Positions 11,414 to 12,035 of a stretch of 39,589 nucleotides of DNA are shown piece by piece. The DNA lies in IMG/VR virus record IMGVR_UViG_3300014770_000007, positions 1 through 39,589 of that record; one strand, 5' to 3'. The position numbers and the translations under genes were made by a program. Source of the stretch: a virus (Duplodnaviria; Heunggongvirae; Uroviricota; Caudoviricetes). The notes beneath the pieces are model-generated. The model did no database searches and was not told the DNA's origin. It worked only from the letters and a program-made list of their open reading frames with translations. Positions within the stretch are counted from its first letter, which is position 1; each line of letters begins with the position of its first letter.

Positions 11414-12000
11414 AAAAAAAGCCGTCTTAAACAGACGGCAAATGGCTCTGGGTGATAATGAGGGTTTTACATAACTGGTCATCCACACCTGATGTCCCAA
11501 CATACCCCTATGCGTGACCCGTGAATAACCAGTTATGTAAAACGACACGCAGTTCAGGATGTTTCACAACATGCTTTACCCACGATTTGCGGCTTTCCCG
11601 CCAGCAAGATAAGGATCACCTCCTTATCAGCGAGTGTTTGGGTTGTGGCGGTCGGTGCTGAACCCCGACTTAATGACGATAGGCGTGTACCGACGCCTCG
11701 TTTTACTTCCTCCGCTTTCACGGCTTCACCCTAGACCAGCTTTACGAAATCCTCGTAAACCTAACCGCGGCAGATATGACCGGCACGGTGTGCCATATCA
11801 CGGACCGGCGGGTGTCTCGTTCACCTGATTAACGCATCAGCCTGCGTATTCACCACAACGATAAGAGCACTGAGATGTATGATAATCGTCGCAGCACCAC
11901 TTTAAACAACTCAATGCTCTTACCTGTTGTGTGCCGGTTACGTTTATCCGGCGTCTTTCGACCGATTAAGTGATAGTGTCTGCTATGCAGTTCTGTCACT
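11414..12000 (-). ncRNA. candidate structured non-coding RNA (~590 nt), unknown class
   Basis: ORF-free on both strands (stops in all minus frames; only plus ORF is Arg/Pro-rich junk), GC-rich, bounded by near-consensus promoter (12007-12035) and terminator (11421-11439). Not matched to any known RNA family by eye. Confidence 0.3.
11421..11439 (-). terminator. strong intrinsic terminator
   Basis: gccgtcttaaacagacggc hairpin followed on the minus strand by T7 (plus-strand A7 at 11414-11420). Confidence 0.55.
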
Positions 12001-12006
12001 GACTTA

Positions 12007-12035
12007 ACAATAGGTCAAGAATAGTTATATGTCAA
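12007..12035 (-). promoter_or_regulatory. sigma70-type promoter TTGACA-17 bp-TATTGT
   Basis: Minus strand reads ggcTTGACAtataactattcttgaccTATTGTtaag; -35 at 12035-12030, -10 at 12012-12007; overlaps the stop of the upstream gene. Confidence 0.45.

Follow-up and report, generated by a model that had tools for sequence, protein, structure and literature searches.

A mosaic of RNA-structure modules, among them a three-way-junction RNA of wide distribution, in the head-tail gene cluster of a Sasha/9NA-like siphophage

Between two structural genes of the viral genome IMGVR_UViG_3300014770_000007, which we analysed over its whole length of 39,589 nucleotides (nt) and refer to here as the window, there is a gap in which we find a structured RNA with three helices, the junction RNA. 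The phage is a siphophage of the Sasha/9NA type, and the records most similar to it (98-99% identity) belong to Escherichia phage PDP46, Sashavirus 536P12 and Bas82. On the minus strand the order of genes is the major head protein (12430..13449), a protein of 117 amino acids (aa), the gap, a 136-aa protein and the head-closure protein Hc1. From the stop codon at 12015 to the ATG at 11374 the gap measures 640 base pairs (bp), whereas the remaining gaps of the head-tail module are all 61 bp or less; the choice of this ATG is supported because the 136-aa product matches phrog_21889 across residues 1-136 of 136. Since a strong terminator follows right after the major capsid gene, the gap lies between two terminators within the structural operon (Table 1).

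The original prediction for this gap, made from the sequence alone, was a single structured non-coding RNA of about 590 nt running from a promoter-like site to a terminator. Much of what it described is there. The spacer is as unusual in length as had been said, and it is non-coding: stops occur in all frames, and the open reading frames (ORFs) are all short, both on the minus strand (11554..11721, 11850..11999 and an N-terminal extension from GTG 11548) and on the plus strand, the two longest having no match in PHROG. The plus-strand ORF 11634..11828, which had been listed as the only one, is present, together with 11521..11661 and 11875..11973. The site TTGACA-17-TATTGT was read correctly, and its conservation extends to Sasha and PJ16 and almost to 9NA; promoter-like sites as such are not enriched in the region (three found, 2.4 expected from shuffles). 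We also confirm the terminator, with its 7-bp stem and T7, and the small hairpin sequences that had been picked out, with GGCGTCGGTACACGCC at 11697-11682 and GCCGGTC at both 11809-11803 and 11784-11778. The Shine-Dalgarno-like box TAAGGAGGTGATCC is perfect and conserved, without a credible ORF behind it. The region was said to be rich in GC and in hairpins: its GC content is 0.52-0.54 over 11500-11900 as against 0.40-0.45 in the immediate flanks, and the minus, transcribed strand of a 601-nt stretch is highly structured, with a minimum free energy (MFE) of -224.8 kcal/mol compared with -185.2 +/- 5.1 for shuffles (z = -7.7). No likeness to transfer RNA (tRNA), transfer-messenger RNA (tmRNA), RNase P or an obvious intron had been seen by eye, and ARAGORN likewise calls no tRNA or tmRNA in the window, while Rfam 15 gives zero hits at the gathering threshold and noise only in E-value mode. 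Parts of the gap are found again, with covariation, in hundreds of other genomes.

Table 1. Features in and around the gap, in window coordinates.
Feature	Position	Strand	Description
Intrinsic terminator	12387..12410	-	Strong; directly 3' of the major capsid gene; annotated in Sasha
Upstream gene	12015..12368	-	117 aa, phrog_19242, function not assigned
Sigma-70 promoter-like site	12007..12035	-	TTGACA-17-TATTGT; 10/12 matches; overlaps end of gene 12015..12368
Small hairpin	11933..11952	-	GCCGG-ATAAACGTAA-CCGGC; just upstream of H1; read from sequence; same 30-nt piece duplicated in PDP46
H1, long imperfect hairpin	11854..11931	-	CACAAC-A-GG-U-AAGAGCAUUGAG ... CUCAGUGCUCUU-A-UC-GUUGUG; ~20 bp, variable apex; forms in 601-nt MFE
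Three-way-junction RNA, long form	11642..11859	-	218 nt; unconstrained fold, model R1, family covariation, RNAalifold
Helix P1	11859-11851 with 11650-11642	-	
P2 hairpin	11847-11832	-	Loop GGCUGA
Loop-loop complementarity	11841-11837 with 11661-11657	-	GCUGA with UCAGC
Multi-helix insert	11831-11670	-	Conserved
P3 hairpin	11669-11651	-	Loop GGUUCAGCA
Block C	11547..11640	-	Box TAAGGAGGTGATCC, UUG, two hairpins
Anti-16S box	11626-11613	-	TAAGGAGGTGATCC; 14 nt, perfect complement of 16S rRNA 3' end
Block C, first hairpin	11600-11589	-	GCGG-GAAAG-CCGC
Block C, second hairpin	11572-11559	-	AUGUU-GUGA-AACAU, GNRA-capped
70-nt hairpin	11469..11538	-	Perfect 11-bp basal stem ACATAACTGGT / ACCAGTTATGT; forms in 601-nt MFE
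Intrinsic terminator	11414..11439 (stem 11439-11421 + T7)	-	7-bp stem, 5 G-C pairs; annotated terminator in phage Sasha
Downstream gene	10964..11374	-	136 aa, phrog_21889; then head-closure Hc1

The core that bears the structure belongs to a family of RNAs of 60-230 nt, not of 590 nt. Members of this family consist of a 5' block, (U)UGUGGUGAAU-GCGCA-GGCUGA-UGCGC, and a 3' block, AAGCCGG-AGAUCAGCA-CCGGC-CACCACA(A), with a variable insert of 12 to >200 nt between them. In the common fold, helix P1 joins (U)UGUGGUG to CACCACA(A), P2 is the hairpin GCGCA-GGCUGA-UGCGC, and P3 is the hairpin GCCGG-AGAUCAGCA-CCGGC, which abuts the 3' strand of helix P1 with zero intervening bases. The window carries both blocks (GUUGUGGUGAAUACGCAGGCUGAUGCGU ... 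AAGUCGGGGUUCAGCACCGACCGCCACAAC), and an unconstrained fold of its copy alone recovers P1, P2 and P3. A covariance model that we built for the family, R1, with 86 copies aligned, recognises the window copy in two matches of 37.7 and 23.1 bits, separated by a 160-nt insert. Compared with the consensus, the window has paired changes in P2 (A-U for G-C) and in P3 (GUCGG/CCGAC for GCCGG/CCGGC).

Covariation in relatives had been suggested as a check on the 590-nt RNA. In the R1 alignment 96.2% of the cells are paired, and 13 of the 23 pairs are changed on both sides, in 56 cells; no shuffle out of 500 reaches 13 such pairs, and slid controls give 2-6. Among the paired cells G.U outnumbers A.C four to one (41 versus 10), and therefore the selected molecule is the sense-strand RNA. 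Independently of R1, we used MAFFT to align six long forms: those of the window, of IME10 and of an Aeromonas phage, and those of three viral contigs from IMG/VR, of which two are visibly rich in G+C. From this alignment RNAalifold returned helices P1 to P3 plus an extra helix, with compensatory changes at 10 of 35 pairs. The junction RNA thus has three helices backed by compensatory changes, on the transcribed strand. The two loops are also complementary, GCUGA to UCAGC, in the window and in 98% of the cells, in states that are either invariant or G.U, which is compatible with a predicted loop-loop helix.

The junction RNA is interlocked with the hairpin upstream of it, H1. The duplex of H1 (6+2+12 bp) fits the approximately two turns of imperfect duplex expected of an RNase III processing site. 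Its final bases, UGUG, are common to helix P1, such that H1 and helix P1 compete for one UGUG, and its 5' end (CACA...) repeats the 3' end of helix P1. The same stem with a different apex occurs in CUS-3, IME10, PJ16 and lambda. Across the family, 128 of 180 non-redundant members have a hairpin of 65-135 nt based on the UGUG that immediately precedes GUGAAU, and its arms differ completely among lineages yet remain complementary, which amounts to extensive covariation. The apex is variable, at times with tRNA-like arms (phage P1 and our loci L148, L187 and L184). In L130 (2925-3010, a P1-like plasmid), L148, L184 and L187 it holds an anticodon-arm-like hairpin and a canonical T-arm (GGGTTCGAATCCC), and H1 of these four loci looks like a D-arm-less tRNA relic directly after the CCA of tRNA-Thr. 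We also considered the 3' arm of H1 as a nut-site boxA (CGCUCUUA / UGCUCUUU). A nut site of the lambda type has a single-stranded boxA a few nt upstream of a boxB hairpin; in H1, UGCUCUUA is present but base-paired, and it is lost in H1 variants with other stems, so that we rejected this candidate.

How widespread is the family? A scan of IMG/VR for the 5' block (GTGGTGAATNCGCAGGCTGATGC) yields at least 120 contigs, and the 3' block (GCCGGAGATCAGCACCGGCCACCAC) is also present in 121 of 126 hits anchored in this way, 62-228 nt downstream, with sequence between the blocks that is unrelated from one hit to the next. A second scan, anchored on the 3' block, again yields at least 120 contigs and returned variants of the 5' block. 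By BLAST the family is found in 135-136 phage records of GenBank, including P1, HK620, HK629, HK633, mEp460, Stx2 phages, and N4-like, T1-like and Ackermannviridae phages. It is carried by 942 of 5426 complete E. coli genomes (~17%), with 237 places on P1-like plasmids, and among the matches listed there is no RefSeq annotation under the E. coli copies. In species-representative genomes R1 has 72 hits at E<=0.001 among 80 loci searched; these loci were picked on the 5' block only, by an 18-nt pattern for which ~17 chance hits are expected in that database. Isolates of Gamma-, Beta- and Alphaproteobacteria are the solid carriers. The hits in Acidobacteriota, Planctomycetota, Bacteroidota and Coriobacteriia are all on contigs of metagenome-assembled genomes, and such non-proteobacterial hits may be binning errors.

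Lambda itself contains a relic of the family (lambda 44,789-44,942; L206 990-1143), in which H1 stands directly after tR' and is followed by GUUGUGCUGAAU...CAGCACAAC. Helix P1 is kept there with a compensatory change from G-C to C-G, P2 and P3 are lost, and R1 gives 17 bits. The relic itself is unannotated; orf-64, which is annotated, shares no more than the first ~27 nt of H1. No Rfam 15 family covers the junction RNA, to judge from a 72-nt minimal member and 29 element-carrying loci; the Rfam hits in these loci are tRNAs only, plus Betaproteobacteria-1 elsewhere in one locus. The searchable literature, whose coverage lacks most subscription journals, yielded no description of the family, and the conserved 13-15-mers gave one irrelevant match in it; an earlier description is conceivable.

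As to genomic setting, in 8 of 8 annotated records the junction RNA is co-oriented with its neighbours, and the recurrent clusters of neighbouring genes are predominantly on the element's strand. Clustering the flanking ORFs brings out two dominant settings: in 48 loci the element comes after an S24 cI-like repressor encoded on its own strand, and in 25 it sits in a late leader that has Q ~560 nt before it and is followed by holin, lysozyme and Rz. A search among the neighbours for a dedicated partner protein turned up only generic lambdoid genes (cI-like S24 repressor, Q, NinG, holin, lysozyme, Rz, Rha, CII). A terminator-like hairpin is found within 160 nt downstream in 43% of copies, as opposed to 13% upstream. 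In 22 of 208 copies a tRNA lies within 300 nt, in every case on the same strand and in several with spacers of 4-13 nt; in Massilia the element stands between tRNA-Gly, which it follows without any spacer, and tRNA-Pro. Phage P1 (L330, OP279344 65.6-66.5 kb) has two strong and two weak copies after tRNA-Asn and tRNA-Thr and before tciA, where a hypothetical coding sequence (2666-2839 of the locus) overlaps only one weak copy (19.8 bits). Tandem arrays of 2-4 copies occur in phage P1 and in Klebsiella phage Magnus.

A lambdoid prophage presents a further arrangement (L132 2655-2740), in which H1 is followed by an 'empty' hairpin, GTTGTGGCAGCACAAC (GTTGTG-GCAG-CACAAC), and a T-run, and a second H1 with a full copy stands 250 nt further on; the locus looks like an empty and a filled site side by side.

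The history of the gap can be read by comparison with PDP46, Sasha, PJ16, 9NA, CUS-3, IME10, an Aeromonas phage and Magnus. In 9NA the counterpart is only ~205 bp long. It has in common with the window the bases immediately following the stop codon, the terminator region and, between them, 92 nt at ~96% identity (window 11638-11547); H1 and the junction RNA are absent from it, and window 11546-11454 has no counterpart there. The 70-nt hairpin is accordingly an insertion relative to 9NA, shared by Sasha, PDP46 and PJ16. IME10 matches window 11931-11638 at 91% identity, and CUS-3 and Huey match 11872-11638 at 99%. In P22-like phages the matching segment comes after the Q antiterminator gene and ahead of holin, in the same orientation as both, and in CUS-3 it is flanked exactly by the boundary sequences bsq4 and bsq3 of the depositors. 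Sasha and PJ16 have a 62-nt degenerate junction RNA at the same site (28-30 bits with R1), and in PDP46 a deletion follows H1 and the initial 76 nt of the long form, both of which survive at 100% identity. Because PDP46, an independent isolate, contains the long insert, the insert is not an assembly artefact; the same architecture in independent isolate genomes, PDP46 among them, speaks against the chimera for which a check had been proposed. At the deletion joint of PDP46 (L001 1741-1770) there is a second copy of the 30-nt CCGGATAAACGTAACCGGCAC piece, which suggests deletion by recombination between short repeats.

On this comparison, the gap is a mosaic of at least four RNA-structure modules with separate histories. 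The ancestral spacer held block C and the terminator, as in 9NA. The Sasha lineage gained the hairpin-bounded 70-nt insert and also H1 with the junction RNA, which stand after the promoter-like site and before block C. Horizontal acquisition accounts for the central 235-294 nt: the window's long form shares 99% identity with the copy that P22-like coliphages have in their Q-holin leader, and it therefore arrived by recombination within the conserved arms of helix P1. The junction RNA is dispensable at this locus, being absent from 9NA and degenerate in Sasha and PJ16.

Block C has a pattern of conservation of its own. Its identity between 9NA and Sasha-like phages is ~96%, as against 82-86% for the coding DNA on either side, and 7 unrelated viral contigs also have it, in the form AGGAGGUGAUC-N3-4-AUC-UUGCUG with two hairpins after it. 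The first stem covaries (GCGG/CCGC, ACGG/CCGU, ACAG/CUGU), and the second combines a GNRA loop with compensatory stems. The nearest start after the box is a UUG, 11 nt past GGAGG, whose six-codon frame is not kept among the copies; therefore it is structure, not a peptide, that is conserved. Most genomes have the junction RNA without block C. The STAB-SD 5' stabilisers, as in Bacillus cryIIIA, consist of a Shine-Dalgarno sequence that is not used for initiation, and the box of block C resembles them in being complementary to the 3' end of 16S ribosomal RNA (rRNA) with no credible ORF. Block C differs in its place inside an operon, where ~240 nt and a terminator separate it from the gene that follows, and a stabilising role would be an analogy.

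Among known RNAs, tRNA is the closest in topology. The closing helix of the element stacks on a 5-bp hairpin stem with no intervening base, its second hairpin comes 3 nt after the closing helix, the two hairpin loops are predicted to touch, and inside tRNA arrays the element is co-oriented, with tRNA-like spacers. Conversely, its 6- and 9-nt loops would pair through 5-6 Watson-Crick bp rather than forming a T-loop/D-loop elbow, an insert of 12 to >200 nt stands in place of the anticodon arm, and there is no conserved CCA. We rejected tRNA and tmRNA as identities, given the lack of a cloverleaf with canonical D/T loops and an anticodon arm, or of the tag ORF of a tmRNA, and the fact that the Rfam tRNA model hits only the true neighbouring tRNAs.

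The put RNAs of HK022 (putL and putR) are processive antiterminators made of RNA alone, which bind the zinc-binding domain of the RNA polymerase beta' subunit and suppress termination. A put RNA is a V-shaped pair of stem-loops of ~70 nt (PMC9378689). The element resembles it as a structured RNA encoded in cis, on the sense strand, in leaders of long operons and upstream of terminators; it differs as a closed three-way junction with hairpins predicted to kiss, and has no similarity to put in sequence or by model. The HK022 genome gives no regular-expression hit, and its best R1 score (15 bits, E 0.1) falls away from PL and PR. The small RNAs PasA and PasB of EPEC prophages were rejected as well, with no significant R1 hit at their loci in E2348/69, where the best score (14 bits, E 0.0065) lies inside the upstream esterase gene and PasA/PasB are on the opposite strand. 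The small RNA rydB (RF00118) has only a 17-nt P3-like hairpin in common with the family, not its full length. In E. coli K-12 (L329 3714-3781) this hairpin, GCCGGAGAUAAGCGCCGG, is nearly that of the family P3, with a loop equal to the P3-like loop of the degenerate Sasha copy, and rydB might be a relic fragment of the family. Lambda 6S RNA and StxS run from PR' to tR' (PMC7547250), in the same neighbourhood between Q and the lysis genes and often with an intrinsic terminator after them, whereas the element is downstream of tR' and unrelated in sequence. With the boundary sequences of CUS-3 it shares conserved arms that are recombination breakpoints, and differs from them in that its blocks form covarying RNA helices with a bias to the sense strand. 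The junction RNA is thus set apart from put, tRNA, tmRNA, PasA/PasB, rydB and any Rfam family.

At the intercistronic sites of T7, RNase III cuts imperfect duplexes of ~20 bp. H1 is likewise an imperfect duplex of ~20 bp between genes of a late transcript, and in lambda it stands directly after tR'; unlike the T7 and lambda hairpins it is interlocked with the following RNA through the common UGUG, and its cleavage is a proposal made here. RNase III sites have been reported in the lambda late transcript, as the title of Daniels et al. 1988 has it (pmid 2849240, cited in PMC7547250), and we infer that H1 is such a site.

We propose, at a little short of an even chance, that the gap is an untranslated part of the late minus-strand transcript in which RNA modules have accumulated, and that the junction RNA is a processed, stable, tRNA-shaped accessory RNA. 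It would be transcribed together with the late genes, and RNase III would cut the ~20-bp duplex of H1. This cut would free the common UGUG, allowing helix P1 to close. A compact RNA of tRNA shape would result, with P3 stacked on helix P1 and the kissing loops as its elbow; like the tRNAs beside it in phage arrays it would be trimmed, and it would persist as a stable accessory RNA, with the variable domain as cargo. The tRNA cluster of T4 includes stable RNAs that are not tRNAs.

Several results weigh against this proposal. The kissing helix is without any double compensatory change in the 86-copy alignment, and the window element alone folds with an energy no better than that of shuffles (z = -0.14). 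In the 601-nt MFE structure the base of H1 wins over helix P1, which forms in the isolated element. Neither ARAGORN nor the Rfam tRNA model recognises the element, whose T-like loop has 9 nt and whose D-like loop has 6; a fixed CCA after helix P1 was not found, the offsets being diffuse, with no more than 17% at any one. The positions of the lambda RNase III sites are known here only from the title of Daniels et al. 1988. Only ~10% of copies adjoin tRNAs, and the dominant contexts are operon leaders, after Q and after the cI-like repressor, which suit a transcription element acting in cis at least as well. For this phage the model of processing and stability draws on predicted structure and context, and we would call it nearly as likely to be right as wrong.

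The main rival explanation is accordingly one in which H1 and the junction RNA bind the elongating RNA polymerase or block Rho, such that downstream terminators are read through, as with put but by another fold. The leaders of long operons that dominate among the contexts (the 25 loci after Q and the 48 after the repressor), the excess of terminator-like hairpins downstream, and the place of the window copy between two terminators and ahead of essential head-tail genes are all as this explanation would have them, and the near-invariant core over proteobacterial classes suggests a universal partner, for example RNA polymerase. It accounts poorly for the tandem copies of phage P1 and Magnus and for positions in tRNA arrays, however. 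HK022 lacks a copy, the fold is not the V-shaped two-stem fold of put (PMC9378689), phages with Q have no need of such an element, and neither 9NA nor Sasha has a full copy, yet both express these downstream genes. We consider a cis-acting element unlikely, while giving it serious weight.

We regard as distinctly unlikely the single RNA gene of ~0.6 kb that was originally predicted, with TTGACA-17-TATTGT and the T7 terminator as the ends of one unit. Against it, the modules have independent distributions and histories across PDP46, Sasha, PJ16, 9NA, CUS-3, IME10 and the Aeromonas phage: 9NA has only ~205 bp at this place, and most genomes have the junction RNA without block C. A promoter-like site and a terminator do bracket the interval, the former conserved in the lineage, and the whole stretch folds far better than shuffles; but promoter-like matches are not above chance, and the -35 hexamer is in coding sequence. 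The order H1, junction RNA, block C, terminator is found again in two unrelated viral contigs, L024 and L116, in another genomic context, and for this reason a discrete unit is still conceivable.

A third explanation, which we find very doubtful, places the function in DNA: the repeats would be boundary sequences for recombination, or a selfish repeat resembling a miniature inverted-repeat transposable element, marking mosaic joints with no RNA function for the phage. The breakpoints of homology between the window, Sasha, PDP46 and CUS-3 do fall exactly in the conserved arms of helix P1, bsq4 and bsq3 of the CUS-3 annotators flank the same segment, and L132 has its 'empty' hairpin beside a filled copy. 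A linker for recombination has no need of invariant loop sequences, however, nor does it explain compensatory changes that hold three helices in register, the fourfold excess of G.U over A.C on the sense strand, or strict co-orientation with neighbouring tRNAs and neighbour clusters that keep predominantly to one strand. Finally, a decayed or mis-assembled protein gene, or an assembly chimera, is scarcely credible: ORFs are annotated inside or across the gap in the PDP46, PJ16 and 9NA records, but they are on different strands or frames in each phage and broken by module boundaries, the gap has stops in all frames and no PHROG hits, and independent isolate genomes share the architecture.

For the family as a whole, it is possible, though we would put it well below even, that H1 and the junction RNA form a new and very widespread class of phage-borne functional RNA that works through a universal host machine. 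It could be either an RNA-only reprogrammer of RNA polymerase or Rho, or a tRNA-shaped decoy or scaffold for RNase P and tRNA-processing enzymes, with arbitrary cargo; some inserts resemble 16S rRNA helix 11 or tRNA arms. Block C would then be a second new module, capturing the 30S subunit. If the family is functional, phage P1, HK620 and the Stx phages (and lambda, with its relic) carry an unrecognised structured RNA despite decades of study, as do about one sixth of complete E. coli genomes and prophages across the Proteobacteria, and a new player would be added to phage RNA processing, transcription control or host interference. The junction RNA offers a natural scaffold that tolerates inserts of 12 to >200 nt. 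ORFs annotated across the modules, such as PDP46_0046, are probably spurious, as are the long 5' extensions given to 9NA gp42 and PDP46_0047; PJ16_048 is in the same gap, yet over a different insert. For the window alone the consequence is modest, the insert being dispensable for the head-tail module.

Further modules were seen in and around the family. The sequence AGCTAGATGGTGAGGTAATGGCTCACCATGGCGACGA is carried by L073, L083 and L095 in the variable insert, and by L187 in place of P2. In sense orientation it closely resembles gammaproteobacterial 16S rRNA helix 11, with a compensatory change in the stem, and it looks like a mimic of an rRNA helix displayed on the scaffold. Upstream of H1 there is a recurrent module of ~170 bp (L005, which is PJ16, 1546-1900; L132 2740-2905; L136, L160, L187 and L024), the opposite strand of which has AAGGAG and then a hydrophobic ORF of 25 codons (MLTYRLLRRHQNNIIVCIYLCGQFL); PJ16_048 is annotated across this module, and the ORF is reminiscent of a type I toxin, by analogy. 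On the 3' side of the junction RNA, many family members (for example L073, L095, L049, L126 and L028, and also L009, L042, L079 and L071) have one of two more recurrent non-coding modules, of which one reads ATCACGCCTCAGGACCGTGAT...GGCGGTGGCAGTT...CCACCGCC and the other begins CCCACTGCCTGGGACCCTTCGGCCAGAGAGCCGACATTGCC.... It seems that the intergenic regions of phages draw on a common pool of such non-coding cassettes.

Two observations concern neither the gap nor the family. The window has exactly 10 N at 5802-5811 and again at 10495-10504, the second run falling inside ORF 10141..10548 (XXXX in the translation), and both are probably masked bases or scaffold gaps. In L024 (2704-5493) a terminase-like ORF of 929 aa appears, from its translation only, to have an inserted segment resembling an intein or a homing-endonuclease domain.

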